Source: Candidatus Harrisonbacteria bacterium (lineage in GTDB: Bacteria > Patescibacteriota > Minisyncoccia > UBA6257 > 02-FULL-45-10c). Taken from it: a stretch of 64,000 nucleotides of DNA. Of the stretch, positions 11,825 through 63,516 are shown one piece after another. Both the position numbers and the translations under genes were made by a program. The stretch lies in NCBI GenBank assembly GCA_016192685.1, contig JACPTS010000001.1, positions 33,412 to 97,411 of the forward strand. The letters run 5' to 3'. How positions within the stretch are numbered: position 1 is the first letter of the stretch; the number at the start of each line of letters is the position of its first letter. Under the pieces are notes generated by a model. The model was not told the origin of the DNA. It searched no databases and worked only from the letters and a program-made list of their open reading frames with translations.

Positions 11825-12148
11825 ATGAACCTCCCCGATTTGCCTCGTTTCTCTAAAAGTTGCACAAAATCCGATAAATGTAAACCAGCCGTGCGTTATT
11901 CACTTTTGCTATCCGGCGATATATTGTGTAAACTGATGTTAAGTCGCATTTTTATGTCGAAACTGAGTAAAAAAGCCAAAGCACTGCCAGAAATCCTAAC
12001 GCTCGCGCAGACGTGTGAAGTTTTAAATTGTCATCCGAATACGCTCCGTAACTGGGATCGCCGCGGAGTTTTAACAGCGATTCGCTTCGGGACACGCAAA
12101 GATCGACGTTACAAGAAGAGCGATGTTTTCAAGTTGATTGAATCTTGA
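11825..12148 (+). CDS. MerR/excisionase-family helix-turn-helix protein (start probably at internal MSKLSKK, about 11954)
   Basis: LTLAQTCEVLNCHPNTLRNWDRRGVLTAIRFGTRKDRRYKKSDV matches the HTH_17/MerR-type excisionase fold. Confidence 0.5.
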   Translation: MNLPDLPRFSKSCTKSDKCKPAVRYSLLLSGDILCKLMLSRIFMSKLSKKAKALPEILTLAQTCEVLNCHPNTLRNWDRRGVLTAIRFGTRKDRRYKKSDVFKLIES

Positions 12149-12163
12149 AATAAAAAGGTTAAA

Positions 12164-14879: not shown

Positions 14880-14883
14880 GATT

Positions 14884-16410
14884 ATGAAAAAACGCGAATC
14901 AGAATATAAACCATTGTTGTTTACCACAACACTTAGAAATCCAGAACGATTAAAATGGTTTTTAGGTGTGCTTAAAGATTATGACGGACAAGTTCTCAAC
15001 GATACATTGGCTGAAGAAATTGCTGGTGAAATTATTCGAGTAGGCCTTTATAAACCGATCAAAATTAGTTCGACTGTTAAGAAGAAAATAGAAACCAAAG
15101 AGCCTCTGTCTGACAGGGAAGTCCGAATAGTGCTTGCTAATAATCCCCAAAACCATAAAGAAGCCGGTTTTAGTAAGGGCTGGGCTTCTAGATTTGATAC
15201 ATGGTTCAAAATAGCTAAAGAGCTTGGATTCGTTTATTACCAAAATGGCAAAAAAATCAGATTCTCTGAAATAGGGCTCAGGTTGGTTGATAATGAGCAC
15301 CCTGAATTTGAACAGCAGGCCTTTCTCAACGCATTCGTAAAATATCAGAGCAATAGCCCTTTCCGGAGAGTATTAAATGAAAATGCCCCTTTGATTTTAT
15401 TGTTAGGTGTAATTAAGAGAATAAATGCCGATAAGAGGTTTAACGGAACCGGAATTTCAAAGTTAGAATTGCCCTTAGTAATTTTCTGGAAAGATAACAA
15501 CGCAGAAAAGCTATATCAACTTATAAAGAAAATAAGAAAAGAGTACGGCTATAATCCGAGCTGGGAAGTTATCGTAGATATTTGCGTGAATCAAATAATG
15601 GGCGGCGAGTTCAAAAAATTTAACCACAAGTCCATAATGGTGGACTATCCGGATGAATTTATTAGAAAAATGCGATTGACCGGCTTGATCTCTTTAAGAG
15701 GAGCTGGTCGATTTGTTGATATAAATAAAAATGAACAAGCTAAGGTTGATTATGCTTTAGCGAATTATTCTCAATACAAAAAATACGCTTCAGAGGAAGA
15801 ATATTTTGAATACATGTCAATGGTGGATGAGAATCTTCTCTCGTTCGTTGCCAAACCAGTCAGCATTGGAGAACGCGATAAATTCTTGACTAAATGGATA
15901 AGCATTTATTCTTGGCAAAAAATTACTGACGAACTGCTTATTTTAGCTAAAGACAAACTGACAAAAGATGATATTTTGAAGTATTTATCAAGTCCAGTAA
16001 GGTTAGAGTTTCTTGTTGCTTTGGCGGTAAAATCTAAATTCCCCGATGTAAAGGTTATTCCTAACTATCCTTATGACGACGAGGGTTTACCGACGTCAAC
16101 GGCTGGCGGTATCGGTGATAAGGGAGATATTGAATGTTATGAGAGTGTTAATGGAGTACTGATTGAAGTGACTATGTCAGAGGGGAGAATACAAACAGTT
16201 ATGGAGATCTGGCCAATCGCTAGGCATTTAGAGGAGTTCAGTAAAAAAGTTGAACATTCGATGTGTTATTTCGTTGCCCCAAGTATTTTTAGAGATTCTG
16301 TACGGCAGATCGAATTTGTAAAAGAGAAAGACAATCTTTCTATTTTACCCAAGACCATCAAAGACTTTTTGAATCATTTAGAAAGTAGCAAGTCTCTATA
16401 CCCAGCATAA
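14884..16410 (+). CDS. candidate restriction endonuclease partner of the two methyltransferases (508 aa; possibly type IIS, AlwI-like; family not verified)
   Basis: operon position immediately after two adenine MTases; size fits type IIS/nicking enzymes; no unambiguous catalytic motif identified by eye. Confidence 0.35.
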   Translation: MKKRESEYKPLLFTTTLRNPERLKWFLGVLKDYDGQVLNDTLAEEIAGEIIRVGLYKPIKISSTVKKKIETKEPLSDREVRIVLANNPQNHKEAGFSKGWASRFDTWFKIAKELGFVYYQNGKKIRFSEIGLRLVDNEHPEFEQQAFLNAFVKYQSNSPFRRVLNENAPLILLLGVIKRINADKRFNGTGISKLELPLVIFWKDNNAEKLYQLIKKIRKEYGYNPSWEVIVDICVNQIMGGEFKKFNHKSIMVDYPDEFIRKMRLTGLISLRGAGRFVDINKNEQAKVDYALANYSQYKKYASEEEYFEYMSMVDENLLSFVAKPVSIGERDKFLTKWISIYSWQKITDELLILAKDKLTKDDILKYLSSPVRLEFLVALAVKSKFPDVKVIPNYPYDDEGLPTSTAGGIGDKGDIECYESVNGVLIEVTMSEGRIQTVMEIWPIARHLEEFSKKVEHSMCYFVAPSIFRDSVRQIEFVKEKDNLSILPKTIKDFLNHLESSKSLYPA

Positions 16411-16415
16411 ATAAT

Positions 16416-17156
16416 ATGTCTACGCAAAGAGGAAAAATCGTAAGTGCCGTCTTACAGATTCTAAAAGATAAACCAGAGGGCATTAGGTACTCCGAATTAT
16501 TCAGAGCCGTAAAAAATACTCTCCCAGAAGCAAACGACAATACCGTTCACAGCACTATTTGGGATTTGGATAAAAAAGTTGCAGAGATAACTAAACCAGA
16601 AAGGGGAATTTTCATATTGAGGCAATATATCAAGGAGGGGGCTGAAATAAAATTACGAGAGGAAAAAATAAGTAAGGGCATAAGCGAGAGCGCTTTTTAT
16701 GCTTCATTTGCGGATTATTTGGTTAAAGACTTAGGAGAGTGTACCAAGGCCGTTCCGCTTGGGGGCAATAGGTTTGGCGATAGATGGGGAACTCCTGATG
16801 TTTTTGGTGTATATAAATTTTCTGAAACTGACCGAATACGACCGCAACCAGAAATCGTGAGCGCAGAGATTAAGACTGATACAAGTCAAATTATAACAGC
16901 ATTTGGGCAGGCATGTGCCTATAAACTTTTTAGCCACAAGGTCTATCTGGTTATCCCTGAAGATGCCGAACGAGATATAGAAAGGGTAGAATCGCTTTGT
17001 ATGCGTTTCGGTATAGGTTTGATTTTATTTGATAAAAATAATGCTGAAAATCCTAATTGGGCTATCCGTGCTCGCGCCAATAAAAGTGAGCCTGATTTCT
17101 TCTATGTAAATAAATACCTTGAACAGCTCGGAGATGACTTGAAAAATTTATTTTAG
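16416..17156 (+). CDS. Mrr-like nuclease: N-terminal winged helix + PD-(D/E)xK catalytic core
   Basis: N-terminal IVSAVLQILKD...GIRYSELF (Mrr_N-like); TPDVFGV ... VSAEIKTD fits a PD..ExK motif. Confidence 0.5.
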   Translation: MSTQRGKIVSAVLQILKDKPEGIRYSELFRAVKNTLPEANDNTVHSTIWDLDKKVAEITKPERGIFILRQYIKEGAEIKLREEKISKGISESAFYASFADYLVKDLGECTKAVPLGGNRFGDRWGTPDVFGVYKFSETDRIRPQPEIVSAEIKTDTSQIITAFGQACAYKLFSHKVYLVIPEDAERDIERVESLCMRFGIGLILFDKNNAENPNWAIRARANKSEPDFFYVNKYLEQLGDDLKNLF

Positions 17157-17158
17157 AA

Positions 17159-18058
17159 ATGAAAGACGTTAAAGATTTAATAAAACTCGACGACGTAAAA
17201 AAATTAAAGGTTATGAATATTTTTCAAAAAATCATTGAGGTATTAACGGAAATTTTCTTTCGAAAGGACACAGCTCCGCCAAGCGTACCAACGCAGCCGC
17301 ATCAAGTTATTTCGACACCGCCGTCCCCAGATCAATCGCCAGCTCCAGTTCCTCCCTCAGTCGAACCAACAGTGACAGAATCCGCAACGCCCCTAACTCA
17401 AAATCAGGAACAGCCAGTTATTCTTAAAAATGCGGGGTTCTCCATTACTGCTGAACAATTAAAACAAATAGTACCCACGTTGTCAGATAGTAAATGCAAG
17501 GAATACTTGCCACATTTGTTTCAAACAATGACAGAGTTTGAAATAAATACGCCCATTCGTTTAGCTGCATTTATTGCTCAAACCGCACATGAATCAGCCG
17601 GATATTCCGCATTTCTTGAAAATCTAAATTATTCTGCACAAGCCCTTCTCAATACATGGCCAAACCGCTTTACGCCAGAAAGTGCTGCGATTTATGCACG
17701 ACAACCAGAAAAAATCGCAAACCATGTTTATATTAATCGTTTGGGGAATGGAGATGAGGCGAGTGGTGATGGATGGCGATACCGAGGACGAGGAGTAATT
17801 CAGACCACTGGACGCATTAACTACAAAGCATGTGGAGCTGGCCTAGGACTTGATTTGATCACATCTCCAGAATTACTTGAGCAGCCCTTAAACGCTTTTC
17901 GTTCAGCTGGATTGTACTGGAAGAGTCGCAATTGTAATTCTTTTGCCGACAGCGATAATTTCACTGGGCTTACAAAGGCAATTAACGGTGGTCTAAACGG
18001 ATTAGATGATCGAAAAGCTTATTATGCACGTGCAAAATCTGTGCTGGGCATTGTATAG
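17159..18058 (+). CDS. glycoside hydrolase family 19 (phage endolysin/chitinase-like) with Pro-rich N-terminal linker
   Basis: FIAQTAHESAGYS core motif typical of GH19; Pro/Ser/Thr-rich linker PPSVPTQPHQVISTPPSPDQSPAPVPPSVEP. Confidence 0.65.
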   Translation: MKDVKDLIKLDDVKKLKVMNIFQKIIEVLTEIFFRKDTAPPSVPTQPHQVISTPPSPDQSPAPVPPSVEPTVTESATPLTQNQEQPVILKNAGFSITAEQLKQIVPTLSDSKCKEYLPHLFQTMTEFEINTPIRLAAFIAQTAHESAGYSAFLENLNYSAQALLNTWPNRFTPESAAIYARQPEKIANHVYINRLGNGDEASGDGWRYRGRGVIQTTGRINYKACGAGLGLDLITSPELLEQPLNAFRSAGLYWKSRNCNSFADSDNFTGLTKAINGGLNGLDDRKAYYARAKSVLGIV

Positions 18059-18068
18059 TTAAAAAACT

Positions 18069-18611
18069 ATGTTCAATAAAACTGATTTTGAAAACATAGT
18101 TTGGGACTTCCTGTTCACGTACAGGCAGTTTCTGCTCAACGGATATTTACATAAAAGAGTAAACCATGATGTGTATGAAGCAAATACTGCTACTTGGAAT
18201 ACCTTACTTCTCAGCTTAGAATCGGGCGCTTTACTTGGTCTGGCAAAATTACTCGAACGAAAAGACGATTTAGGAAGACCATTTAATGGTGGCTTAGGAA
18301 AGACATTCAATAATGAAGAATTTAATAACGAAGAATTAAATGGAATTTCCGAGAAGATAATAAATCTGAGACATGCCTATATAGCGCATGCTGATTTATC
18401 AAAGATGCGCGATATAAACTCTTTTCTTACCAAAAATCGCTTGACTGGCACCGATATTGTTAAAATGTTTGATGCCCTTAAAAGTAGATTGATACAATAC
18501 CAGAAAAGCTTGAAGCTCGATGTCGATGTGCAAAAATTATTTACGGAAAGTCAAAATAGCGCACTTCACGATCTGAATAGCTGGCTAAAATCTTTTAACG
18601 CAGAGTCATAG
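18069..18611 (+). CDS. hypothetical protein with Rx5H motif (LRHAYIAH), possible HEPN/Abi-like
   Basis: 180 aa, alpha-helical composition, a single R-x5-H motif; weak. Confidence 0.3.
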   Translation: MFNKTDFENIVWDFLFTYRQFLLNGYLHKRVNHDVYEANTATWNTLLLSLESGALLGLAKLLERKDDLGRPFNGGLGKTFNNEEFNNEELNGISEKIINLRHAYIAHADLSKMRDINSFLTKNRLTGTDIVKMFDALKSRLIQYQKSLKLDVDVQKLFTESQNSALHDLNSWLKSFNAES

Positions 18612-23139: not shown

Positions 23140-23173
23140 GGCTGAATAGCATTTATTTTACTATAATAAAAAG

Positions 23174-23671
23174 ATGGATACAAGCAAACCGAATTTTGAG
23201 CTAATCATTGGCCTAGGAAATCCTGATAAAAAATATGAAAATACCTACCATAATGTCGGGCATCTTTTTGCAGACTACTTAAGCAGTCACATGTCACATG
23301 TCACGTGTCACATGTTAAAATCGGATGTCTACATGAACGAATCCGGAGCTTTTGTTAAAAAAATGCTTAAAAAATATGGCGCCAAACCAGAAGAGCTGCT
23401 GATTGCCCACGATGATAGTGACATTACTCTTGGAGACTATAAATTTTCTTTCGGCCGCGGAGCCGCCGGCCATCATGGCATAGAGAATATCCAAGCCGTC
23501 CTCAAAACAAAAAACTTCTGGCGGCTTCGCATTGGCATAAGACCTATAAGTCCAATAGGACTTATAAAATTAAAACGCCTCAAAGCGGGAAAATTCGTGC
23601 TTAAAAAAATCACCGCTGCCGATAAAAAAATCCTGGGAGAAATTTTTAAGCAGATAGATAGTAAACTATAA
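23174..23671 (+). CDS. pth: peptidyl-tRNA hydrolase
   Basis: LIIGLGNPDKKYENTYHNVG N-terminal signature; contains heptamer tandem repeat at 23287..23314. Confidence 0.85.
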   Translation: MDTSKPNFELIIGLGNPDKKYENTYHNVGHLFADYLSSHMSHVTCHMLKSDVYMNESGAFVKKMLKKYGAKPEELLIAHDDSDITLGDYKFSFGRGAAGHHGIENIQAVLKTKNFWRLRIGIRPISPIGLIKLKRLKAGKFVLKKITAADKKILGEIFKQIDSKL

Positions 23672-25618: not shown

Positions 25619-27445
25619 TTAACGGGACCAGTTAATAATTACGTCATCAACCCGCGGCAAACTCGCGCCAGCCGCGTCAAAAAACGCCTTATACCTGAAA
25701 TAACGCTTGTTATTATGGTCAGCCGAACGGACTTTCGCCTGAACATTCGGGCCAGCCGGCGCGTAATAACCTGCGCCAGAGCCATCGGAACCCAAATAAT
25801 TCCACGGGCCGGAACTGCTGTTGGAAGAAGCAATCTGGAATTTCACCGCCGTTCCGGACGGCTGGTTGCCCTGCCACATAATGCTATTTAAAGCCGCGCC
25901 GCCGGAAACGCCGGTATCAAACACGCTGGAAATCAAAATACAATTGCTATCGCAACTGGCCGGGATATATTCCAACCCCTGAGGATGCTTAAACTGCCCG
26001 TTACCGGTGCCGTTAGTCCCCCACTTGGTAACAAAAATCCCGAAACCGTCAAATTTCTGGACACGGTCATTATCGCCGTCGGAAACATAAATATTATTTG
26101 CCTGATCGGCAGTCACGCTTTGCGGTTTATTAAACTGCCCGTTACCGGTGCCGTTGGTTCCCCATTTCAGAAGAAAATTACCATTGGAGTCAAATTTCTG
26201 GATTCTGTCATTCCCAAGATCGGCAACAAAAATATTGTTTAAATTATCAACGCCAACGCCTTGCGGGAATTTAAACTGCCCGTTCCCGGTGCCGTTAGTT
26301 CCCCACTTCAAAAGAAAATTCCCGCTGGAGTCAAATTTCTGGACGCGGTCATTATCACGGTCAGCGACATAAACATTATTGGCGCTATCCACTGCCACAT
26401 CCTGCGGCTTTTTGAATTTTCCGTCACTGGAACCGTTAGAACCCCACTCCAGAAGAAAATTGCCGCTGGAATTGAATTTTTGAATCCGGTCATTATCTAA
26501 ATCAGCGATATAAATATTATTAGCGCTGTCTATCGCAATCCCCTGGGGATGCCCAAATTCTCCGGGGTCATTTCCGCTGGTACCCCACTTCAAAAGAAAA
26601 TTCCCGCTGGAGTCAAATTTCTGGACGCGGTCATTGTCTTTATCCGTAACATAAACATTATTCAGGCTGTCAATCGCCACTCCATACGGTTTTTTAAACT
26701 GCCCGTTACCGGTGCCGTTAGTCCCCCACTTGGTAACAAAAATCCCGAAACCGTCAAATTTCTGGACACGGTCATTATCGCGGTCAGCGACATAAATATT
26801 GACTAAATTATTAGTAACCGGCGTAATAGAGCCGGACGTGGTGGTAAAATCAACATTGGTCTGGGAAGTAAATTTATTATTTACTGAAGTTATCGGGCCT
26901 TCCTGTCCGGCGCCGCCGGACCAATCGGTCTGGCGGAAAACTTCATTTGGCCAGCGAGTTAAATAAACTTCTGACGTAACAATTGGCGAAGAACCGCTGA
27001 TTGACCAACTCGCCGCTCCGGTAATTTTTTGGGTGGAAGGGTCATCATTTAAAGCATTATAAACCGATTCAATATTGCCGCTGGCATTCCGGGAAACATT
27101 TTCAATATAAAAATAAACCGTATAAACATTGTTATTGACGTTCGTCTGCTGGTCACCGCTCTCAATCGCCAGCTGACCGGTAGAAGTGGCGACATAATAA
27201 TGATTAGCTGAACCTTTATTCAAGCCATAAAGATTTTGCCAATTCTTTCCTCCTAAAGCAGCGACATTATCAGCCATGGAATTAATCAAAGACGAAGCAA
27301 TTTCATATTGCTGGGACAGCTGGCTGGAACGGAGCACTAAAAATAAAGCTCCGGAAGCAACTCCAAGCATGGTTACGCCAACGCCTAAAGCAACGACTAG
27401 CTCAATTAAAGATTGGCCGCGAACCGAATTTCTGTCCCAAGACAT
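25619..27445 (-). CDS. pilin-like (type IV prepilin N-terminus) protein with six-bladed NHL-repeat beta-propeller
   Basis: N-terminal GQSLIELVVALGVGV prepilin-type helix; six ~47-aa NHL repeats (DRDNDRVQKFD..G.F...WGT.GTGNGQF..P.GV.VD..NN.YV.D). Confidence 0.6.
   Translation of the reverse strand: MSWDRNSVRGQSLIELVVALGVGVTMLGVASGALFLVLRSSQLSQQYEIASSLINSMADNVAALGGKNWQNLYGLNKGSANHYYVATSTGQLAIESGDQQTNVNNNVYTVYFYIENVSRNASGNIESVYNALNDDPSTQKITGAASWSISGSSPIVTSEVYLTRWPNEVFRQTDWSGGAGQEGPITSVNNKFTSQTNVDFTTTSGSITPVTNNLVNIYVADRDNDRVQKFDGFGIFVTKWGTNGTGNGQFKKPYGVAIDSLNNVYVTDKDNDRVQKFDSSGNFLLKWGTSGNDPGEFGHPQGIAIDSANNIYIADLDNDRIQKFNSSGNFLLEWGSNGSSDGKFKKPQDVAVDSANNVYVADRDNDRVQKFDSSGNFLLKWGTNGTGNGQFKFPQGVGVDNLNNIFVADLGNDRIQKFDSNGNFLLKWGTNGTGNGQFNKPQSVTADQANNIYVSDGDNDRVQKFDGFGIFVTKWGTNGTGNGQFKHPQGLEYIPASCDSNCILISSVFDTGVSGGAALNSIMWQGNQPSGTAVKFQIASSNSSSGPWNYLGSDGSGAGYYAPAGPNVQAKVRSADHNNKRYFRYKAFFDAAGASLPRVDDVIINWSR
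25960..26815. repeat. six near-identical ~141-bp tandem coding repeats (NHL units)
   Basis: first and last units nearly identical at DNA level; explains spurious plus-strand ORFs 25985..26806. Confidence 0.8.
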
Positions 27446-27462
27446 ATTTTAATTTTATCACA

Positions 27463-27713: not shown

Positions 27714-28316
27714 TTATCGAAAGCAGGAGAACGTGCAAGAACTGAAACTTTGGGCCCGACCCTGAACCGACGCGGAATTTTGGTTCTCCACACTGCAAAC
27801 TTGGCCTGCAAAAGAGCTTGGTAGCATGATTCGCTCTCCGGCATTGCACTTGCATGTCGGATTATTATAAGGAAAATCTTCAGCCACCACTCCGCAAGTA
27901 CCGACATAAGAGCTGCTCAGCGTGGTAAGTGCCCAGGCCGCGTTGCCGTTCACGTCCGAGGCAGTCAGCACCTTGTTTGCCTCCGGGCTTCCGCCGCGGA
28001 TGCGAAGCTGGCCGTTAACGTCAAGTTTTTGCGAAGGGTCAGCCGCGCCAATGCCGACGTTGCCTGTCATCAGCAAAATAGGAGACGCATCCATCCTCAA
28101 CTTTACATACCCGCCTTGATACGCTGACAGCGAGGCATCATTTGCAACTGAATCCCATGTCAGCGAGACGCGGCCATCCACGTCTGAAGCCGTCCCTTCA
28201 CCCGAAGCAAATCCGCCTATGACAGATAACGTCCGATTTGGATTCGCCGTCCCAATGCCAACATTGCCGCTGGAAACAATTAAGCCGTTAACAGCGCCGC
28301 CGGTGTTTAAAATCAA
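27714..28316 (-). CDS. fibre-like secreted protein, paralogue A (TTG start; GNVGIGT(A/T)NP motif; Cys-rich C-terminus)
   Basis: first 23 codons and ~120 bp upstream identical to paralogue B; upstream ATG-initiated signal peptide lies in the +1 frame. Confidence 0.4.
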   Translation of the reverse strand: MILNTGGAVNGLIVSSGNVGIGTANPNRTLSVIGGFASGEGTASDVDGRVSLTWDSVANDASLSAYQGGYVKLRMDASPILLMTGNVGIGAADPSQKLDVNGQLRIRGGSPEANKVLTASDVNGNAAWALTTLSSSYVGTCGVVAEDFPYNNPTCKCNAGERIMLPSSFAGQVCSVENQNSASVQGRAQSFSSCTFSCFR

Positions 28317-28488
28317 GCCGCCAGTTTTAGACTGGCCGGTAGAGCCGGTATTAAGAGGCGCGGCCGCGTTGCCGCCGGGCGGAGCAACTATAAACCGATA
28401 GCAAAACCACTATGCTAAGAATGATGACTTTTAAGGAATCTTTAATTATGTAGGTCATAAATATCTTAATTATATCATATATTATTTC

Positions 28489-28989
28489 TCATTGGTTGCC
28501 GATCGCCATAACCGTTACCACGCCCGAGTCTAACGGATTGCCGTCATAATTGCCACAGCCGACATAGGCCTTGTCACTAGTAAAAGGATAGAAAATTGTA
28601 CCTCTACCCAGCTGAAACATGATCGAAGCTGCTGCTGTATCAGTTCTCTGGCAGGCACCCGTGACAGCGTAGTTTACATTCCCGAATGGTGTCTTCCAAT
28701 AGACCGAGTAGGAACCTGTACCCTCACGTATGACCCTGAGGACATTGAAAGATTCCCGGATGGCGCAATTAGTGCTTGGGCAGCCAGCGGACGTTCCGTC
28801 AAAGTTCACCCACGCCTTAAAGATATTCTCTTTTGTGATTGTATTCGCGGCAGGCGTAGCGGGCGCAGAGCCCGTGACCTTAACCGCGCCTGAAACCTCT
28901 AAGGCCTGAGTAGGATTTGTTGTCCCAATGCCAACATTGCCGCTGGAAACAATTAAGCCGTTAACAGCGCCGCCGGTGTTTAAAATCAA
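28489..28989 (-). CDS. fibre-like secreted protein, paralogue B (same N-terminal module, different C-terminal domain)
   Basis: as above. Confidence 0.4.
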   Translation of the reverse strand: MILNTGGAVNGLIVSSGNVGIGTTNPTQALEVSGAVKVTGSAPATPAANTITKENIFKAWVNFDGTSAGCPSTNCAIRESFNVLRVIREGTGSYSVYWKTPFGNVNYAVTGACQRTDTAAASIMFQLGRGTIFYPFTSDKAYVGCGNYDGNPLDSGVVTVMAIGNQ

Positions 28990-29165
28990 GCCGCCAGTTT
29001 TAGACTGGCCGGTAGAGCCGGTATTAAGAGGCGCGGCCGCGTTGCCGCCGGGCGGAGCAACTTGTCGGCTCTACCCAGCCGCCTTGCGCCAGCACTAAAT
29101 AAACCGATAGCAAAACCACTATGCTAAGAATGATGACTTTTAAGGAATCTTTGATAAGGTGGAAC
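28990..29165. repeat. duplicated 5' module (copy 2; copy 1 at 28317..28440) with 36-nt indel
   Basis: direct comparison of the two upstream regions. Confidence 0.8.
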
Positions 29166-29186
29166 ATAAATTTAAATAATTACTAA

Positions 29187-30695
29187 CTACCAATTCCCCT
29201 GAACACCGTACAAAACATCTTTCCAATGGACCCAGCCGACCGCCTCGGGTTCCCATGACCATCCGGAAAAATTTTTATCCGACCCAAGCTGGACGCCATA
29301 AGCATTGCTGTCTTGCGTAGTGCCATTTAAACGCAGCCATCCGCCGGACGACAAAACTTTTGCCCACCCGGTGACATTTTTCGGAAAACTGCCGGATAAT
29401 CCGCCGCTGACTCTAGCCTCGCAAGTTCCCGACGGGCAACCGCTCAAATCAGAGCTGTTAAAACTGAGCCAGCCGATATTTTCCGACCAGGCATATCCGG
29501 ACATTAAGCCGGAACCAAAATCCACACTCACCCCATAACTAACCGCGCCGCAACTGGAAGTATTGCCGCAATTAAAACTGAGCCAGCCGATATTTTCCGA
29601 CCAAGCCCAGCCGGAAACATTATAAGCAGATGGAATAACGCTTATTTCATTGCTTAAAGCACCCACCCCGACTGCATTTTCAGCCGCTACCTTATAATAG
29701 TAAGTTGTGCCATTAGTAAGTCCGCTATTAGTATAAGTCAAAACATTTCCGGCATTGGTATAAAAAGTTTCTCCGCCGGAAGATAAACCGCGATAAACTT
29801 TATAATTGGTTATTGGGGAGCCGCCACTAAAAGCCGGCGCTTGCCAGTTTAAAGTCGCTTGATTATTGCCGGCAGCGGCAGTTAAATTAACCGGCGCGTC
29901 CGGAACCGCCAGCGCGTTAACCGTTAAATTAAAATTAGCGGTTTTCACTAAAGTGCCGCTGGTAGCCGAAACAGAAATAGCGCTGGTCCCGGCCGGCGTA
30001 GAACCGGAAGTGGCAATCGTCATTTGAGAAGAGCAAGTCGGAGTGCAGCTTACCGGACTAAACAAAGCGCCCGTTCCGGCCGGTAAATTAGATACCGAAA
30101 AATCGGACGGTTGGGAAACGCCGGACAAAAGAGAAACATTTACCGCGGCATTCACTGAACCGCCCTGATAAACCGTACCCGAATTGGGCGAAAGGGAAAT
30201 AAAAAGATCCAGCGGCGGAGGCGCCACAGCCAACGATACCACCCCTTGGTTATTCAAAGTAAAATATTGCGCCGATGCTGAACCGGTTAATCCCAGAACC
30301 AGGCTATTGGCCGATGTTTCCCCGGTAACCTTAGCGAAATAAATATTCTCGGCAGTTCCCGGCGCCGGATCGGTAAATTGGATATTCGGCGGCAAGACAA
30401 TAGTTTTTACGATCGTTCCGGAAGAATAATCGGCGCCGTAAAATAGCTGATAAAAATCATTGCCGGCCGCGGAAGCATCAATATGAATTCCCCATTGCTC
30501 TCCCGATTCTTGAGTAATGGATTTTTGCTGGGCATCGCGAAGATTATTCACCAATTCTTTAGCAAAAAGATCTAATTCTTTTTCGGATTTAAATCCATAA
30601 ATATTTAAAGTCCCCACGCTCCCGAGAATGGCTAAGATTCCCATAATGACCATTGTTTCTAATAAGGTAAACCCGCGCATATTAAAATTATACAC
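29187..30695 (-). CDS. large pilin-like protein (prepilin N-terminus MRGFTLLE) with fibronectin-III domain and GW.WSENIGWLSFN repeats
   Basis: class III signal peptide-like GFTLLETMVIMGILA; FN3-like NYKVYRG...YYYKV; likely start at second Met (about 30680). Confidence 0.6.
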   Translation of the reverse strand: MYNFNMRGFTLLETMVIMGILAILGSVGTLNIYGFKSEKELDLFAKELVNNLRDAQQKSITQESGEQWGIHIDASAAGNDFYQLFYGADYSSGTIVKTIVLPPNIQFTDPAPGTAENIYFAKVTGETSANSLVLGLTGSASAQYFTLNNQGVVSLAVAPPPLDLFISLSPNSGTVYQGGSVNAAVNVSLLSGVSQPSDFSVSNLPAGTGALFSPVSCTPTCSSQMTIATSGSTPAGTSAISVSATSGTLVKTANFNLTVNALAVPDAPVNLTAAAGNNQATLNWQAPAFSGGSPITNYKVYRGLSSGGETFYTNAGNVLTYTNSGLTNGTTYYYKVAAENAVGVGALSNEISVIPSAYNVSGWAWSENIGWLSFNCGNTSSCGAVSYGVSVDFGSGLMSGYAWSENIGWLSFNSSDLSGCPSGTCEARVSGGLSGSFPKNVTGWAKVLSSGGWLRLNGTTQDSNAYGVQLGSDKNFSGWSWEPEAVGWVHWKDVLYGVQGNW

Positions 30696-34214: not shown

Positions 34215-34802
34215 TTAAAGGTCTAAGCCGGCATCGGTGCCAACTTCATAAATACTATCGGCATTGCCGCCATCTTTCGTATTAGTTTCTTTATCATCAG
34301 CGCCGCCAGAGGCATAGCGAGTGCTCTCCATATTGGCATTTAATTCATAGGTCTTGGCAGTATTGTCGCAAGCATAAGAATAGAAATAATTGGTATCATT
34401 AGTCGGGTCAATCGGCAAAACTGAAAGTGCCGGACCGCCTGGAACTGCTCCAAAGTTGACCGGCACCCAGCCAGTGCCGTCCACTACTCTAGCGGCAGTA
34501 GCATCAGTAACCCTAGCCGCCGCGTGGCGGCCGGCGCAGTTAGCTGACATTCCGCCGGTCTGCACAAAACACATAGTCGCGCAAGCTTTAACGCCCGGAC
34601 CATCCAAGTCCGGGGAAGATAAAGTGGAAACATAAAGCGCCAGCGCGTTCCTTAACACGCCCATATCCTCAATTCTGGTGGTATCCCGAGCTTGGGCAAA
34701 AAGCTGGGCCGGATTTAATACTAAAACCGACACCGCGCCTAATACCGCGAGAATGCCGATAACAATGACTAATTCTAATAAGGTAAAACCTTTGGTTTTC
34801 AT
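34215..34802 (-). CDS. type IV pilin (major pilin candidate)
   Basis: MKTKGFTLLELVIVIGILAVLGAV prepilin cleavage/methylation motif; 195 aa. Confidence 0.85.
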   Translation of the reverse strand: MKTKGFTLLELVIVIGILAVLGAVSVLVLNPAQLFAQARDTTRIEDMGVLRNALALYVSTLSSPDLDGPGVKACATMCFVQTGGMSANCAGRHAAARVTDATAARVVDGTGWVPVNFGAVPGGPALSVLPIDPTNDTNYFYSYACDNTAKTYELNANMESTRYASGGADDKETNTKDGGNADSIYEVGTDAGLDL

Positions 34803-34886
34803 ATATATAATTTTAGACCTGTTGCGACTTATTAAAATTAATTATAATACAATAACGCTTAAGCGTAAAAATACGGCTGTGGATAA

Positions 34887-35255
34887 CTATTTTAGATATT
34901 CTTTAATCTTTTTCACCAAATCATCAATGGAAACCTGGGCTTTGACAATATATTCCACCACTCCCAGTTCCCGCCCCTTTTCAATATCAAGAGCCTGCCC
35001 CAAGTTGGAAATAATCATTACTGGAATTTTAGCTACTTGCGGGTCTGATTTTATTTCTTCCAGCACTTCAAAACCGGATTTGCCCGGCAGAATAATATCC
35101 AAAAGCACTAAATCCGGATTGCTGGCTTTTAAAAGCTTATTGGCCTCACTGCCGCTTTTTATGCCCACCAATTCAAAGCCTTCTTTTTTCAGCCGGTTCC
35201 CCAAAAGCGAAGACAAAAACGGGTCGTCTTCAATAAGTAAAATTTTCTTTGTCAT
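34887..35255 (-). CDS. single-domain response regulator (CheY-like receiver)
   Basis: KKILLIEDDP ... LVLLDIILPGKSG ... conserved Asp/Lys positions. Confidence 0.85.
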   Translation of the reverse strand: MTKKILLIEDDPFLSSLLGNRLKKEGFELVGIKSGSEANKLLKASNPDLVLLDIILPGKSGFEVLEEIKSDPQVAKIPVMIISNLGQALDIEKGRELGVVEYIVKAQVSIDDLVKKIKEYLK

Positions 35256-35348
35256 GTTTTTTAAATTATATAACAGAAAAGATTTTCAGACAATTAAAAA
35301 ATCCCGAATGGTCGGGATAATGATTATTAAATATTTTTCTCATTCTAA

Positions 35349-35522
35349 AATTTTTCCATTGCGTTTCTAAAGTCGTCCCCCACTTTTTTCCAGTCGGAAG
35401 CAAGGCGCTCTTCATCAGTTCCAAACTGTTCCTCATAAGTCTTATAGCTTGGAAAAAGGTTAAATATATTTCCCATTCCCTTAAGAAATGCCTGCCAATT
35501 AATTTTCATCTCCATTTCTTAT
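35349..35522 (-). CDS. possible 57-aa small protein (MEMKINWQAFLKGMGNIF...)
   Basis: found by eye; below the track length cut-off. Confidence 0.2.
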
Positions 35523-35713: not shown

Positions 35714-35754
35714 ATTTCAAAATCCAACTCCCGCTCCACCAAAATAAAAATAAA

Positions 35755-35950
35755 CTGATATATTTCGTAGAAAAAATAAGCGAAGATTGTTTCTTGTGCG
35801 GAAACTGTCGCAGGCAAATCGGCTTGGTGTCCCGCGAAGCGGGACCGATTTGCCGAGACAGTAGCGGTGCTTGCGAGCCGCCGGAGCGAGCGGACAACCC
35901 GGTTCCGCAAAGAAATAATCTGAGCAATTTCGTAGAAATATATCAGTTCA
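35755..35950 (-). terminator. large compound hairpin followed by U-rich tract on the minus strand: probable 16S rRNA transcription terminator/processing structure
   Basis: inverted repeats 35755..35773 / 35928..35946, inner GC-rich palindromes (caaatcgg...ccgatttg, gtcccgcgaagcgggac); on minus strand followed by TTTATTTTTATTTT. Confidence 0.4.
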
Positions 35951-36265
35951 TTTTTAAAGAAAACTTTCTAGTTATCCCAACCTTATGCGGCCCGAATTTA
36001 ATCGGACAAGCAAATCGAGACTTGAGGCTCCTCGATCAAAACCTTTGCCTGCATTTTTCAATGCAGTATCGTACTCCATCAAATATAAATATTTGATTTT
36101 TGTTTAATTGATCCACGCACAGCTTCCGCTACGCGTGCCTTGTTACGACTTCTTCCATGTCACCGAATCTACCTTTATCCCGCCGAAGCGGAATTTCAGA
36201 TATCCCCGGCTCCCCTGAAGTGACGGGCGGTGAGTACAGGACTCGAGAACGTATTCACCGCGGCG

Positions 36266-36304
<39 letters not shown>

Positions 36305-36701
36305 GCGAGTTTCAGCCTCCAATCTGAACTGGGGCCATTTTTGATGGGATTAGCTCCGCCTTGCGGCTTGGCAACCCATTGTAATGGCCATTGTAGCACG
36401 AGTGTAGCCCAGGGCATCAGAGGGCCATGCGGATTTGACGTCATCCTCTCCTTCCTCCCCCAAAAAGAGGGCAGTCCCCGATGACACATATAACATCAGG
36501 TAAGGGTTGCGCTCGTTACCCCACTTAAGGGAACGTTTCAAAATACGAGCTGACGACAACCATGCAGCACCTGTCCAGCCGTTCCTTGAGAGAACATCCC
36601 ACGTTTCTGCGGGATTTCGTCTGGATTTCAAGCCCTGGTAAGGTTTCTCGCTTACTGTCGAATTGAACCTCATGCTCCACCGCTTGTGCGAGTCCCCGTC
36701 T

Positions 36702-36733
<32 letters not shown>

Positions 36734-37195
36734 TCCCAGGCGGCCTACTTAACGCGTTAGCTTCGCCACCCCGAGGGTCGATACTCGAGATAGCCAGTAG
36801 GCATCGTTTAGGGCGTGGACTACAAGGGTATCTACAATTTTGTTGCTTCGCAAAACTTTTATACTCGCTATGCTATTCTCGCTCATACTGCTGCGCGCTG
36901 GACAAAACTAATTCGCTCATAGCGGAAATTTATCACCCTAGTCGCATTCGCTCCTGGGTATCCCGATAAATTTCCTATTCGCTCAAAGTTTTGTAACCAT
37001 CGCTCCGCAACATTCGCTCAAACAGCATAACTCGTTTAATAATAGTTTTGCGTGACACAGACATTTCTGCTGTGTTCTCTGTGTTGCCATAGAGTTCGGA
37101 CTATATCATTCTCGCGCTTTGAAAAACGAATATCAATCATCTTGATACTCGTAGATCAAAGAGCGAGAATCGGCGTATAGTCTCTGAGGGGTTAA

Positions 37196-37450
37196 TTATT
37201 TTCCTTTTAATTTTTTGAGGTGTTTTTTCACGGTACGATCAACTAATTTAAACTCCGGTTCTTCCAAAATATCATGCGTTGTATATCCATATCTCTTACG
37301 GTCATTGGTTTTCCAAATTGCTTCAATAGACGGCAATCCTCTGCTTTTCAGTTCTTCATTCACGGTTTCTAGAACAGCTTTTAATTTCTTATTTGATTTG
37401 CTTGTGCAAACGATTTCTACAAACCTAAATTTTGAGTCAGGCCTTGACAT
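37196..37450 (-). CDS. intron-encoded small basic protein (84 aa from MSRPDSK), function unknown (no LAGLIDADG/GIY-YIG motif seen)
   Basis: preceded by a perfect Shine-Dalgarno AAGGAGGTG 7 nt upstream of ATG; embedded in the rRNA insertion. Confidence 0.35.
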   Translation of the reverse strand: MSRPDSKFRFVEIVCTSKSNKKLKAVLETVNEELKSRGLPSIEAIWKTNDRKRYGYTTHDILEEPEFKLVDRTVKKHLKKLKGK

Positions 37451-37803
37451 CGTCCACCTCCTTTTTAAATTAACTTCCCTGCTGGTTGTCCGCACCGACG
37501 CGTTTTCACCAGCGATTTGTTTTTGAAATTTCAAAAACAAATCGCTGGTAGCGTCGGATACGCCGGATTTTCCAGCATATAGCCGATTTTACATTCCAGT
37601 GTTGCCACTGAAAGGGACCATATGCGTCTCCGGAAAATTCCGGAGTCACTTCTTTATACCCTAAAGAGAGTGAGATTATTTTTGCGAACCAATAAAATTA
37701 TATTTGCTTCACTTATTTATCTATTTATCGTGCGGCAACATTTATTTTAATTTCTTGCCGAACTGCCGAGTTATCATAGAGAAACTTTATACAATCTAAA
37801 CGA

Positions 37804-37952
37804 GCTCTGCCTGTGTTTCGTGCGGCAACTACGGAGCTCCGAAATGCTTGGCTTTCGCGAAGCGAAAATTTCGGAGCGAGGCGTAGACGCGTTTCGCCGC
37901 AGGAGCGAAACGACGCCGGTGCCGTCAGAAATACAGGCGGAGCGAGTAAAAC
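37804..37952 (+). repeat. structured repeat family 1, copy 2 (inside the rRNA insertion)
   Basis: core identical to copies at 20079..20221 and 63517..63667; own terminal inverted repeat c(t/c)gcctgt(g/a)tttc. Confidence 0.6.
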
Positions 37953-38170
37953 TCATAGACAATTCGGCGGAGCGGCATTTTCAAAATGAATGCCGATGCC
38001 GGTAGACAAATAAGTGAAGCAAATGAGTTCGTAAAAATAACCGAACGATCCTTTTTGCTCCCCACGCTTTCGTGCAATGAGAGTCAGTAATGCGCCAGCC
38101 AAATGCTTTCGCCTTTGGTATTCCCCACGATATCAACGGATTTCACCCCTACACCGTGAGTTCTATTGGC

Positions 38171-38459
38171 CTCTCGCACACTCTAGACAAGTCCCCTCTG
38201 TACAAATGTTTCCACTAAATTGAAATCATTGATTTTGTATCAAGTTCAAGGCGCGAGGAGGAAATCGTAGGGTTACCTACCTTTCCGACTCGCAACGCAG
38301 AAATTGATCAAAATCAAGATTCCCGAAGGGTAAGGAAATTTTTGTCAGCTTCTTCGTTAGTCGTCGCTAGTGTATCTAAAGATACACTTCGCTCCTCCTG
38401 CCTTGAATTTAACTCAAAATTTCCTTATCAATTAGTGAAAATATTTGTACAGAGGGGAC
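38171..38459 (-). other. ~290-nt intervening sequence (IVS) in 16S helix region ~E. coli 650, bounded by a perfect 33-bp inverted repeat
   Basis: gtcccctctgtacaaatgtttccactaaattga ... tcaattagtgaaaatatttgtacagaggggac; flanks align to 16S; core homologous to 61408..61678. Confidence 0.7.
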
Positions 38460-38989
38460 AGCAGTTTTTGCTGCAGCCTCGAAGTTGAGCCCCGAGATTT
38501 AACAGCAAACTTGCTGGTCCTCCTACGCACTCTTTACGCCCAATAAATCCGGATAACGCTTGGAGCCCTCGTATTACCGCGGCTGCTGGCACGAGGTTAG
38601 CAGCTCCTTATTCCTCTGGTACTATCAGCCTTGCGGCTTTCTCCCAGAGAAAAGCAGTTTACAATCCTTAGACCTTCATCCTGCACGCGGCGTCGCTCGA
38701 TCAGGCTTTCGCCCATTGTCGAATATTCTCGACTGCTGCCACCCGTAGGTGTACGAGCCGTGTCTCAGTCTCGTCGTTGGGGAACACCCTCTCAGGCCCC
38801 CTACTGGTCATAGCCTTGGTAGGCCATTACCCTACCAACTAGCTGATCAGACCTAGGCCGCTCCCAAAGCCCCTTGCGGGTTTTAATCCGAATGTTGCAT
38901 CGGATGCTATCGGGCATTACCCCGCCTTTCGGCGAGCTGTGCCCGTCTTTAGGGTACGTACCAAGGTGTTACTAACTCGTTCGCCGCTC

Positions 38990-39075
38990 GCCTTCGGCTC
39001 GGACAAATAACTTTTAACAAATAACTAATAACGAAATTGTTAATAGTTATAAGTTATTTAGTTATTAGTCCGAGC
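38990..39075 (-). other. expanded V1 helix of 16S (~60-nt AT-rich palindromic extension)
   Basis: ggactaataactaaataacttataactattaacaatttcgttattagttatttgttaaaagttatttgtccgag between conserved GCAAGTCG and GGCGAACG. Confidence 0.5.
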
Positions 39076-39448
39076 TAAAAGCTCGCACGACTTGCATGCC
39101 TTATCCACGCCGCCAGCGTTCATCCTGGACCAGGATCAAATCCTCTAAATAAAAGTCAGTTGCACAGAACCCTCGAACGAGTTCCTAGCAACTAACCTTC
39201 GTATTGGGACAACTAGAAAATTTTCTTTTTTACTTGTAATTTTACTAAATTACTAAATTTTATATATTTAGTTATCAAGCCAGCATGTATTATCTTTAAT
39301 TAGTAAAAATAATACACCTATCTTGCGGTTCGTGGTTTTCACCGAGTCAAACTCGGCTTCACACCAGCGGCAAGATAGATGCATTTAGAACCTATCTAGT
39401 AATCTATGAAATTTTTAAATAAAAACTTATTTCATTAAGGTAGTTCTA

Positions 39449-39476
39449 ATTATATTCATAAACAAAATCATGTCAA
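39449..39476 (-). promoter_or_regulatory. consensus promoter for the 16S rRNA gene (TTGACA-16-TATAAT on minus strand)
   Basis: minus-strand TTGACA at 39476..39471, TATAAT at 39454..39449, ~310 nt upstream of mature 5' end. Confidence 0.55.
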
Positions 39477-39987: not shown

Positions 39988-40315
39988 AATAAAAAATAAA
40001 AACCTGACCGAAGTCAGGGCAAGCAAATCTCGCGAATTTCTAAAAGTTTCGGATTTTCAATTGTCTTGTCATCCGCGTTATTTTTCTTCCATTGCTCAAA
40101 TTCTTGTTTAGCTTCTGCTAAACTTTGCGCCGATAAACGCTGTTCTTCCCCAAATACCACTCCTCCTCCGCCCGAAAGCAATTTTAATCTGCCAAAATGA
40201 ACCCGGTAAGAAAGAATCATGGCGCTTATCCGCGGTTTACAAACATCACTATCAAAATAGTAATCCGGCTAATCCAACTTGTCAAACAAAAAAATATCCT
40301 ATATAATATCTAAAT

Positions 40316-40573
40316 ATGAAAACCGATATTCACCCGCAATATTTTCCAAAAGCAAAAGTAAAATGCGCCTGCGGCACGATTTTTGAGGTTGGCTCAACCA
40401 AAGCCGAACTTCAGGTAGAAATCTGTTCTAACTGCCATCCGTTCTTTACCGGTAAAGAAAAGCTGATTGACACCGCCGGAAAAGTGGAGAAGTTCAAAGC
40501 ACGCCGCGCCAAAGCCGCGGAAAAACCAAAAGCGCAGAAAAAGCCGAGAGTGAAGAAACAGAAAAAATCTTAA
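40316..40573 (+). CDS. rpmE: 50S ribosomal protein L31
   Basis: MKTDIHPQY...CACG...[11 protein letters not shown] signature; Lys-rich tail. Confidence 0.9.
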
Positions 40574-40653: not shown

Positions 40654-41376
40654 ATGATCCAGAAGATTATCTTAGAAATCCGTGCCGGCGCCGGGGGCGA
40701 TGAAGCCTCAATTTTTGCCGGCGACCTGGCCAGAATGTACCAGCGCTACGCCGCCACTCGCGGCTGGAAATTTTCTATTTTAGATACCAGTCCCGGAACC
40801 ATCGGCGGCTATAAAACTTTTATAAGCCGGGCGGAAGGTGAAGGAATTTATGATGCCTTAAAACAAGAATCCGGAGTGCATCGGGTGCAAAGAATTCCAG
40901 CGACCGAAAAAGCCGGCCGGGTTCACACTTCCACCGCCACCGTAGCCATTCTGCCGGTGGTAGAGCCAAAAGAAGTAAATATTAACCAGGGCGACTTGGA
41001 AATTACTTTTTCCCGCGCCGGCGGCCCGGGCGGACAGAATGTAAATAAAATTGAATCCGCAGTGCGGATTTTACATAAACCCACCGGCATTGTCGTTTCC
41101 TGCCGGCAAGAGCGAAATCAGCACGCCAACCGCGAACGGGCAATGGAAGTTCTCCGCGCGAAACTTTATGAAATCCAGCAATCAAAAGAGGTTGGCGATA
41201 TTACCGCCGCCCGCCGCGAACAAGTCGGCAGTGCCGACCGCTCGGAAAAAATCCGGACTTATAATTTCCCAGACGACCGCATAACCGACCACCGATTTAA
41301 CGTTAAAGTGCATAACATAGAAAAGGTTTTGGAAGGAGATCTGGACGCGCTTTTAAAGAAAATAAATAAAATCTAG
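40654..41376 (+). CDS. class I peptide chain release factor, RF1-type (PAT motif), lacking N-terminal domain 1 (240 aa)
   Basis: GGQ motif (AGGPGGQNVNK), PAT tripeptide (RIPATEKAG), starts at the domain-2 block EIRAGAGGDEA. Confidence 0.75.
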   Translation: MIQKIILEIRAGAGGDEASIFAGDLARMYQRYAATRGWKFSILDTSPGTIGGYKTFISRAEGEGIYDALKQESGVHRVQRIPATEKAGRVHTSTATVAILPVVEPKEVNINQGDLEITFSRAGGPGGQNVNKIESAVRILHKPTGIVVSCRQERNQHANRERAMEVLRAKLYEIQQSKEVGDITAARREQVGSADRSEKIRTYNFPDDRITDHRFNVKVHNIEKVLEGDLDALLKKINKI

Positions 41377-49582: not shown

Positions 49583-50705
49583 CGGCTGCTTCTTGTAAGG
49601 TGGAAATTTCTATCTTAAAGCCAATCTTAGTTCTGCCTTTATCAATAGTAGTGCCGTTAGCCGGTCCGGTATGAGCGAATATCTCAATCGGGGCGGACTG
49701 GCTGCCGATTCCGCTGTATAAAGCGGTGCCGAAAGTATCCCCGGCGGTTAAAGTGCTGTCCTCGCTGGTAATACCTTGCCAGCCCCAAGTGTTCTCATCA
49801 TCAATATCAGCTGTCGGCGAAGACCAGGCAACCGCGGTGGAAGTGGCGGTTTGCTGGAAATTATCAATATCCGAACCGTCACCGCTGGTCAAATTCTGGT
49901 CTTTCCAGATAGTTACGGAGAAGCCGTTTTTGGCATTAGTGCTGACGGTCAAATCTTGACGCGCCCGTTTAGCAGTATCAATAGTTAATTCTCCCCAGGG
50001 AATAGCGGTAGCGGTGGTAGTGACATCAGTTGTTCCACCTTCGCCGTTAGCTGTCGTTGTTGCCGAAGCAACACCAGCCACAGTAAAGGTGAAGTTGGTT
50101 GCGACCGTGGCAGTTACCGTAACATCAGGAACAATGGCAACTCGGGTACTCGCGGAATCAGCAGCCGGGGCAGTAATGCTGATAACATAAGAACCGGAAC
50201 TAGGAGGATTTACCAATTGGCTGTCGCCGGTCCCGCCAATTGTGGCATTAGTGCCGATTTTTACCGTAATCGGGGCGCTGGCCGCGACTGCCGCCGTGCC
50301 ATTGCAATGGGTAAAAGTGAAAACATTGCTAGTAGAAGTGGAGGTAATTTCAAAACCGGCGGTAGCGCCTGTTCCCGGACAAGCTCCAGCGGCAAAAAGA
50401 TTGAGGTCAGTGGTGGAAGATGCTATATCATAATCAGTCGCGTCAGTTGTGGAAAAAACCGGGGTGCTGGTCCCCTGAAATTGGTCAGCAAAATCAATTA
50501 CTATCGTTGAGCTCGCGGTAATCGGACTTTTAAGAGTAAATTTAATCGTGTGATTGGCTTTGACTGCCGGCTCAGAATCGCTTAAAGTATCAGAAACTGA
50601 CGTTAATTTGGCCGCCAAAGCGTAATTAACCAATAAAACTAAAGTTAAAGTTACTAAGATAAACAGCCAGTTTTTAGAATATCCCGATACCTTAAACTTA
50701 AACAT
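49536..50705 (-). CDS. secreted Thr/Ser-rich surface protein with WxL-like C-terminal tail
   Basis: N-terminal VSDTLSDSEPAVKANHTIKFT shared with 47396..48241; C-terminal ...DDYTQALNYIATPTF similar to the 53288..54610 C-terminus. Confidence 0.4.
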   Translation of the reverse strand: MFKFKVSGYSKNWLFILVTLTLVLLVNYALAAKLTSVSDTLSDSEPAVKANHTIKFTLKSPITASSTIVIDFADQFQGTSTPVFSTTDATDYDIASSTTDLNLFAAGACPGTGATAGFEITSTSTSNVFTFTHCNGTAAVAASAPITVKIGTNATIGGTGDSQLVNPPSSGSYVISITAPAADSASTRVAIVPDVTVTATVATNFTFTVAGVASATTTANGEGGTTDVTTTATAIPWGELTIDTAKRARQDLTVSTNAKNGFSVTIWKDQNLTSGDGSDIDNFQQTATSTAVAWSSPTADIDDENTWGWQGITSEDSTLTAGDTFGTALYSGIGSQSAPIEIFAHTGPANGTTIDKGRTKIGFKIEISTLQEAADDYTQALNYIATPTF

Positions 50706-50764
50706 ACTTTTATTATAGCAGGTTAAGTTTTAGTCCTAAGAGACGGCTGTGGATAACTTTTTTA

Positions 50765-59631: not shown

Positions 59632-59666
59632 AGTCTAATAATAACACAAATAAAAAATCCGCTTTA

Positions 59667-63499: not shown

Positions 63500-63516
63500 A
63501 AATAAATTTTAACATA

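Follow-up and report, generated by a model that had tools for sequence, protein, structure and literature searches.

The 64-kb stretch of DNA analysed here, referred to below as the window, derives from Candidatus Harrisonbacteria (Parcubacteria/Paceibacteria, CPR) and carries a solitary 16S rRNA gene on its minus strand, with no 23S, 5S or spacer tRNA gene within the 64 kb; the sole tRNA gene of the window, for tRNA-Asn, lies at 7909-7981. The 16S gene is preceded by an rRNA promoter of the form TTGACA-16 nt-TATAAT (39449-39476, minus strand; 12/12 matches), and is matched by the Rfam model RF00177 in two pieces, 39151->37940 (575 bits) and 36924->36101 (653.5 bits), which between them cover model positions 1-1533 of a complete bacterial 16S. 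Exon 1 (38048-39151) and exon 2 (36101-36834, from E. coli position ~789 to the 3′ end) flank an intervening sequence of ~1213 nt at 36835-38047, corresponding to the E. coli ~788 site. Exon 1 contains two expansions. One is a 294-nt segment at ~38197-38571, at model positions ~600-621, closed by a 28-nt stem (93% complementary; inverted repeat 38191-38218 / 38432-38459), and the other is a 73-nt segment near 38997-39070.

The flanks of the gene can form a stem, with a 25-nt arm in the 5′ leader (39204-39228) that is 92% complementary to an arm in the 3′ trailer (35956-35980). Pairing of leader and trailer is the usual pre-16S processing stem, and the position of the trailer arm means that transcription continues for at least 120 nt past the 16S tail and that processing generates the mature 3′ end. 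Other structured elements lie close by on the same strand. Directly after the trailer arm is a very stable 231-nt hairpin (35735-35965; MFE -92 kcal/mol versus a shuffle average of -54, z=-8.9) with a G+C-rich core between 29-nt arms (35745-35773 / 35928-35956); it has no Rfam match, and may represent a structured RNA that is co-transcribed, or else a large terminator or insulator. Within the trailer itself is a 36-nt hairpin (~35995-36030, AAGGUUUUGAUCGAGGAGCCUYAAGUCUCGAUUUG) that is 94-97% identical in two other Patescibacteria (loci L116 and L007) with different 16S tails, and a GUGUCGAYU-like motif 15-30 nt past GAUCA is common to many relatives. Both may be processing signals, and an Rfam search of the trailer elements returned nothing at E<=1.

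The gene looks functional, as judged from its sequence. That it is instead a decaying pseudogene or an assembly artefact might be suspected from the insertions it carries (three, of 1213, 294 and 73 nt) and from its being reported by Rfam in two pieces, but this is scarcely credible. The universal cores are all intact, among them the 530 loop, the 1400 region, the 1492 region and the GGAA-capped helix 45; the promoter is a 12/12 match and the leader/trailer stem is present; the intervening sequence obeys group I splice-site rules; and about 20 species, assembled independently, have the same 3′ tail.

The intervening sequence is a predicted group I intron. The Intron_gpI model (RF00028) matches over its full length (1-253) at 37657->37077 with 42.5 bits (E=5e-9), short of the gathering score of 50, and the splice-site nucleotides fit group I rules: the last base of the 5′ exon (AGGAU) is U at 38048 and that of the intron is G at 36835, with UAGAUACCC opening exon 2 at 36834. 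The intron carries an 84-aa ORF (37196-37463, minus strand, including its upstream signal; ATG at 37450-37448, stop ending at 37196) but no recognisable homing endonuclease. The ORF has no Pfam match, its only match among 5.8 billion proteins is itself (NCBI 'hypothetical protein HYY86_00400', Candidatus Harrisonbacteria bacterium), and neither the ORF nor the intron has a tblastn or blastn match in 120 related loci. The sequence AAGGAGGUG stands 4 nt from its ATG, and the Shine-Dalgarno (SD)-like AAGGAGGTG within 37463->37455 is confirmed. The original prediction, made from the sequence of the window alone, held this SD to be hard to reconcile with the host ribosome. That difficulty falls away, as GGAGG is found at -16..-5 before 7 of 1561 ATGs in the window (0.45%) by chance, and AAGGAGG is not enriched (12 copies versus 8.0 expected). 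An SD-dependent gene was considered and rejected, the ORF having no Pfam domain, homologue or related-locus match, and a single ORF preceded by GGAGG being at the chance level. The SD-like site is consistent with chance and carries no weight as evidence.

Bacterial 16S rRNA usually ends in GAUCA-CCUCCUUA, which contains the anti-SD. The terminus of the window gene reads GGAAGCUGUGCGUG-GAUCA-AUUAAACA (36113->36101, minus strand). When the last 230 nt were re-aligned separately to the Rfam SSU_rRNA_bacteria covariance model (RF00177), the final model position, 1533, was reached at 36101, with an aligned end of AAGUCGUAACAAGG-CACGCGUAGC-GGAA-GCUGUGCGUG-GAUCA-AUUAAACA against a consensus of GAUCA-CCUCCUUu. 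Helix 45 with its GGAA loop and the conserved GAUCA (36109-36137) are intact (posterior asterisk), and only the anti-SD tail differs, with AUUAAACA occupying 36101-36108 (model positions 1526-1533) in place of CCUCCUUA. This alignment, which the original prediction had proposed as a check of the terminus, bears out its claim that the 16S 3′ end lacks CCUCC. It had also noted that CCTCC does not occur in the next 500 nt, and the absence extends over the 3 kb searched downstream of the gene (36200 to 33000, minus strand). A nearby 3′ exon supplying CCTCCTT, which the prediction had named as the counter-evidence to look for, is therefore excluded within 3 kb. Since the tail is 8 nt long, the same length as the CCUCCUUA of E. 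coli, the mature 3′ end probably coincides in position with that of E. coli.

The replacement tail is not peculiar to this gene. The window's exact helix 45 is present in at least 24 GTDB species representatives, and in a set of 24 such species loci (from among the matches listed) plus the window the tail is A-U-U-A-A-A-C-U-(A), that is, AUUAAACU(A), with conservation of 0.76-1.0 per position over 8-9 nt; downstream of this the sequences are unrelated, as if random. ATTAAAC is identical in at least 20 species in separate assemblies, and other clades have recurrent tails of their own, including UUUAUUU, UUUUUUUAAAAA, AUUCCAAUUUGGA and AUUAUUU. A survey of one genome per GTDB species, using the pattern GTCGTAACAAGG-N10-GGAA-N10-GATCA followed by any base but C, matched at least 120 species, nearly all of them Patescibacteria, with Paceibacterota, Minisyncoccia, Staskawicz-, Nealson-, Lipton- and Harrisonbacteria among the matches listed. 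At least 109 species lack a CUCC-like tail (109 of the 120 among the matches listed), including the cultured Minisyncoccus archaeiphilus, and CCTCC is absent within 600 nt of the 16S in most relatives too. The best 16S matches of the window gene are Patescibacteria MAGs, and the tail trait is common to the relatives of this Harrisonbacterium.

Loss of the anti-SD in a subgroup of Parcubacteria is already published, and the window is a clear new example and not a new phenomenon. According to Tsurumaki et al. (2022, RNA 28:1041, PMC9297842), just 48% of Parcubacteria have a detectable motif, those without it overlap a group lacking uL1, and SD helices are presumably not formed there; Harrisonbacteria are unnamed in the main text of that paper. 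Likewise, a PLoS One 2024 study (PMC10783764) classes Campbellbacteria and Wolfebacteria as SD-scarce without CCUCC (class iv). The Parcubacteria described in these two papers resemble the present case in belonging to the same phylum-level lineage and in having a full-length 16S without CCUCC(U) and few SD sites. As far as their available text goes, they differ in reporting motif presence or absence only, with no account of tails, promoter geometry, or SD use in lineages that keep the anti-SD.

The conservation of the tail raises the question of whether AUUAAACU is a new anti-SD that pairs with A/U-rich AGUUUAAU near start codons. About 20 species have the tail in common over 8-9 nt, after which their sequences diverge, start regions are A/U-rich, and k-mers complementary to the tail rank 2nd to 4th among same-composition permutations in the +4..+33 interval, all of which would suit such a role. 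However, upstream pairing with the real tail, AUCAAUUAAACA, has a mean dG of -1.02 against -0.90 and -1.14 for controls, and upstream GTTTAAT sub-words are mid-table among permutations of the same composition. In a cross-clade comparison, mRNAs of the ATTAAAC clade match the tail like those of other clades (0.38 versus 0.35 for 5-mers, 0.11 versus 0.09 for 6-mers), and the mild +4..+33 excess of GTTTAAT words vanishes. Upstream complementarity to the variant tail above background, the defining property of class iii in PMC10783764, is thus lacking in the window. With duplex energies, permutation ranks (both upstream and in early coding sequence) and the cross-clade test all negative or control-like, pairing between tail and mRNA was rejected, and a new anti-SD is improbable. 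We infer instead that the mature tail is 8-9 nt long and kept for a function that does not involve mRNA.

The genes of the window make little use of SD sequences. A simple longest-ORF script called 63 ORFs of at least 80 aa, and an SD core was scored as GGAG, GAGG or AGGA in the interval -20..-3, with -60..-43 as the control interval and duplex dG computed with ACCUCCUUA. The caller erred at least once, reporting 34678-35370 (+) where Pfam gives a response regulator at 34887-35255 (-), with a pilin-like gene at 34215-34802 (-); the miscalled ORF is kept in the statistics, to which one or two genes make no difference. An SD core precedes 4.8% of the 63 genes in both the SD and the control interval, and the mean dG is -0.57 kcal/mol. 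The same script applied as a positive control to 49 kb of E. coli K-12 (59 genes) returns an SD core in 50.8%, with 10.2% in the control interval and a mean dG of -5.26. The G frequency at -12..-4 is 7-15% in the window and 37-45% at -11..-7 in E. coli, and internal ATGs of the window have an SD core more often (12.3%) than the real starts (4.8%). The original prediction, from the start codons inspected, that genes here lack SD sequences therefore holds for the full set, and the free-energy comparison it had suggested, run here on the 63 ORFs, is in agreement. The same is true of the restriction-modification genes at 12000-18100 (+), which are likewise without SD. This block differs from the rest of the window in G+C content (0.34-0.40 versus about 0.44) and has a GC skew opposite to its surroundings, which suggests an acquired island.

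Low SD use is not confined to species without the anti-SD. Across 109 CPR loci without the anti-SD (370 genes) an SD core precedes 13.2% of genes, with 9.7% in the control interval and a mean dG of -1.63, and across CPR-type loci that keep GGATCACCTCCTT (384 genes) the corresponding values are 14.8%, 9.6% and -1.65. The latter are metagenome contigs (loci L125-L244) that were picked by their CPR-type helix 45 alone and are taxonomically unclassified; they retain GGAUCACCUCCUU, and their SD use is essentially equal to that of the loci that lack the anti-SD. Because these relatives with CCUCCUU use SD as little, SD independence is broader than anti-SD loss, and the loss looks like a consequence of relaxed constraint rather than its cause.

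These data also bear on whether the mature rRNA has an anti-SD after all, encoded elsewhere, either in a further 3′ exon or in a second rRNA operon with a normal tail. The 16S gene already holds a group I intron, its primary transcript continues at least 120 nt past the tail, and the window is 64 kb of the genome, so there is room for such an arrangement. We nonetheless consider it very improbable. CCTCC is missing for 3 kb in the window and within 600 nt in most relatives, the tail is conserved in both length and sequence like a real terminus, and the loss has been reported independently for the lineage in PMC9297842 and PMC10783764. Moreover, with an anti-SD on the ribosomes the loss of SD sequences would be pointless, an argument that Bacteroidetes show to be less than absolute. 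A second 16S copy of normal type is unlikely in particular, given the lack of SD use and the occurrence of the same loss in more than 100 related species.

A second feature of gene starts in the window is the presence of -10-like boxes with a short, constant spacing to the start codon. A box was defined as TAnnnT with at least 5/6 matches to TATAAT, and the spacer was counted from the box to the start codon. There are several aspects to the pattern. First, boxes with a spacer of exactly 6 nt occur in 7 genes of the window, versus a mean of 1.05 at other spacers (Poisson P=1e-4), and 4 of them are exact TATAAT; in the 370 genes of the 109 related species the count at spacer 6 is 32 versus a mean of 5.2 (P=2e-15). 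Second, the peak is one position wide, with ordinary counts at neighbouring spacers. Third, in the pooled set of 39 spacer-6 genes (7 from the window and 32 from related species) TGn directly precedes the box in 54%, versus 4% of controls, and TGnTAnnnT occurs 25 times at spacer 6, 3, 6 and 3 times at 7, 8 and 9 nt, respectively, and 0.6-0.8 times per position elsewhere in the window and related loci. Fourth, in the same loci a -35-like hexamer (at least 4/6 matches) is present in 31% versus 15% (P=0.006), and the start codon is ATG in 38/39 spacer-6 genes versus 367/433 overall. Finally, E. coli run through the identical procedure has no spacer-6 peak, and in the relatives that retain the anti-SD the near-start promoter peak is weaker and broader, at 6-9 nt.

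The window genes with a spacer of 6 nt are pth (TATAAT; 23162-23176, plus strand), in which residue 10 corresponds to position 1 of the Pfam Pept_tRNA_hydro profile, and six on the minus strand: a gene for an NHL-repeat protein (TGaTAAAAT, 27443-27460, from the spacer scan), a pilin-like gene (TATAAT, 30678-30692) whose product begins with a prepilin sequence, MRG/FTLLE, and which has an alternative GTG 15 nt upstream, a gene for a 389-aa protein (TGcTATAAT, 50703-50720), a pfkB-family kinase gene (TGtTATTAT, 59629-59646), a gene for an 82-aa protein (TATAAT, 61927-61941), and rpe (TGtTAAAAT, 63497-63514; residue 3 is Pfam profile position 2). The window also contains a tandem duplication (28214-28462 and 28887-29171, 92% identity) spanning the 5′ ends and upstream regions of the adjacent ORFs 27714-28316 (-) and 28489-28989 (-), which have identical sequence over the 45 nt upstream of each. 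Slightly longer spacers are seen at rpmE (TTGTCA-17 nt-TATAAT, 8 nt; 40279-40318, plus strand), where L31 profile positions 1-63 correspond to residues 1-63, and at the response-regulator gene (TATAAT, 9 nt; 35253-35270, minus strand). These two spacers imply putative leaders of about 1-3 nt, with about 1-2 nt predicted for rpmE. The N-termini of rpmE, rpe and pth agree with the starts of the Pfam profiles. Downstream of rpmE, the release factor 1 gene (40654-41376, plus strand) encodes only 240 aa, which align to positions 104-338 of 347 in the prfA profile, N-terminal domain 1 being missing; this is not a miscalled start, as only 80 nt separate rpmE from release factor 1.

A hexamer at -12..-7 from the A of ATG is positioned so that transcription begins at the start codon itself, and the spacer-6 boxes are consistent with a signature of leaderless transcripts. 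TGn defines an extended -10 promoter and carries no A/U bias, so its enrichment indicates that the boxes are real promoters and not A/U-rich filler. An alternative view is that TATAAT-6 nt-ATG is no promoter but a by-product of A/U-richness or of miscalled starts, and that the mRNAs have unstructured, A-rich leaders and depend on S1 in the manner of Bacteroidetes. Start regions here are indeed 70% A+T, starts were called heuristically, and most genes are without the pattern; A is at 42-52% over -11..-3 and reaches about 50% at -3, -9 and -11, which recalls the Kozak-like signal of Flavobacterium (PMC6847099). Set against this are the single-position peak, the excess of TGn (54% versus 4%) and of -35-like hexamers (31% versus 15%), the lack of a peak in E. 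coli and the agreement of three N-termini with Pfam profiles, and we regard it as unlikely that the boxes are not promoters. To our knowledge, a promoter peak at spacer 6 is not a described feature of Bacteroidetes.

Placement of -10 boxes at start codons, as proposed in the original prediction, is thus real, although the mode is exactly 6 nt and the examples it gave, rpmE and the response regulator, are at 8 and 9 nt. Its conclusion that the mRNAs are leaderless is likewise supported by the spacer-6 peak, but for a subset of genes: about 11% of window genes have a box at exactly 6 nt and 13/62 (about 21%) have a -10-like box 5-9 nt upstream. Genes outside this subset are closely packed or overlapping cistrons; 30 window genes are operon-internal, separated from the preceding gene by -47 to +27 nt, and 11 of these 30 overlap it. 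The mRNAs are least structured around their start codons (40-nt MFE of -2.8 versus -6.5 to -7 kcal/mol in gene bodies).

We propose an account in which these features are joined, and give it a probability of roughly 0.85: a functional 16S without an anti-SD, initiation independent of SD, leaderless mRNAs for promoter-proximal genes and coupling for downstream cistrons, as a trait of the lineage. A 30S subunit with AUUAAACA instead of CCUCCUUA would be unable to form an SD:anti-SD helix, and with no such helix possible translation initiation would be SD-independent. Promoter-proximal genes would be transcribed leaderless or with a leader of 1-3 nt, as their (TGn)TAnnnT -10 elements 6 nt upstream of ATG suggest. 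Leaderless initiation at a 5′-terminal AUG requires neither anti-SD nor S1, and here the ribosome with fMet-tRNA/IF2 would recognise that AUG directly. Downstream cistrons would start by coupling or re-initiation over overlaps or very short gaps, perhaps assisted by A/U-rich, unstructured start regions. The loss of the anti-SD would be a lineage trait and the end point of relaxed constraint.

A wider version of this account, which we put forward tentatively and at a little under even odds, extends it to a large branch of Parcubacteria, with leaderless initiation as the main mode for promoter-proximal genes, SD independence arising before anti-SD loss, and the tails of the clades under selection. 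Of the extended -10 promoters that can be detected, about half or more may be placed to start transcription at the A of AUG. That SD independence came first is suggested by the relatives with CCUCCUU, which use SD equally little. Each clade may have fixed its own 8-9 nt tail (AUUAAACU, UUUAUUU, AUUCCAAUUUGGA and others), and these tails may be selected for 3′-end processing, exonuclease protection or binding of a platform protein, and not for mRNA pairing.

Each element of the joint account has parallels in known systems. Prokaryotes rich in leaderless mRNAs, such as Mycobacterium (Actinobacteria), Deinococcus and many Archaea including Nanoarchaeota, also have a -10 or TATA element at a fixed short distance, prefer AUG strongly and do not need SD. 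Nanoarchaeia are also without CCUCC, according to PMC10783764. Actinobacteria and Deinococcus differ in keeping the anti-SD, and SD on leadered genes, whereas both are gone here, SD being absent from leadered or internal genes as well, and the leaderless mRNAs are predicted from sequence. Bacteroidetes/Flavobacteriia (Baez et al. 2019, PMC6847099; Jha et al. 2021) are similar in that SD is nearly absent and starts are A-rich and unstructured with A at -3, and the A-rich, weakly structured start region is found in the window too. Most Bacteroidetes, though, retain but sequester the anti-SD in their 16S, whereas here CCUCC is absent, having itself been replaced. The endosymbionts Carsonella, Hodgkinia and Nasuia have small genomes that have lost both CCUCC and SD, as listed in PMC10783764; they are unrelated, with extreme A+T and decaying genomes, whereas here G+C stands at about 43% and clade members share a conserved, uneroded tail. 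In the literature searched, which excludes most papers in subscription journals, no report was found of leaderless mRNAs in CPR, including Parcubacteria, Patescibacteria and Saccharibacteria, nor were a lineage-wide leaderless promoter geometry, a clade-conserved 8-9 nt replacement tail (AUUAAACU), or SD use that is just as low in CPR-type relatives with CCUCCUU.

As the loss of the anti-SD was already known, the value of the present case lies in mechanistic detail and not in discovery, and the parts worth pursuing are the lineage-wide leaderless geometry, the clade-specific tails and the low SD use of relatives that keep the anti-SD. In the textbook view bacterial start sites are selected by SD:anti-SD pairing, on which gene finders depend, such that a well-documented lineage with neither SD nor anti-SD, and with promoters positioned to yield leaderless mRNAs, bears on the annotation of start codons in CPR genomes, of which there are thousands. 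It also accounts for the inability of anti-SD-dependent autoregulatory devices to work here. Finally, the lineage provides a natural system for SD-free, possibly 70S-type, initiation in Bacteria, and the trait is present in a cultured member, Minisyncoccus archaeiphilus.
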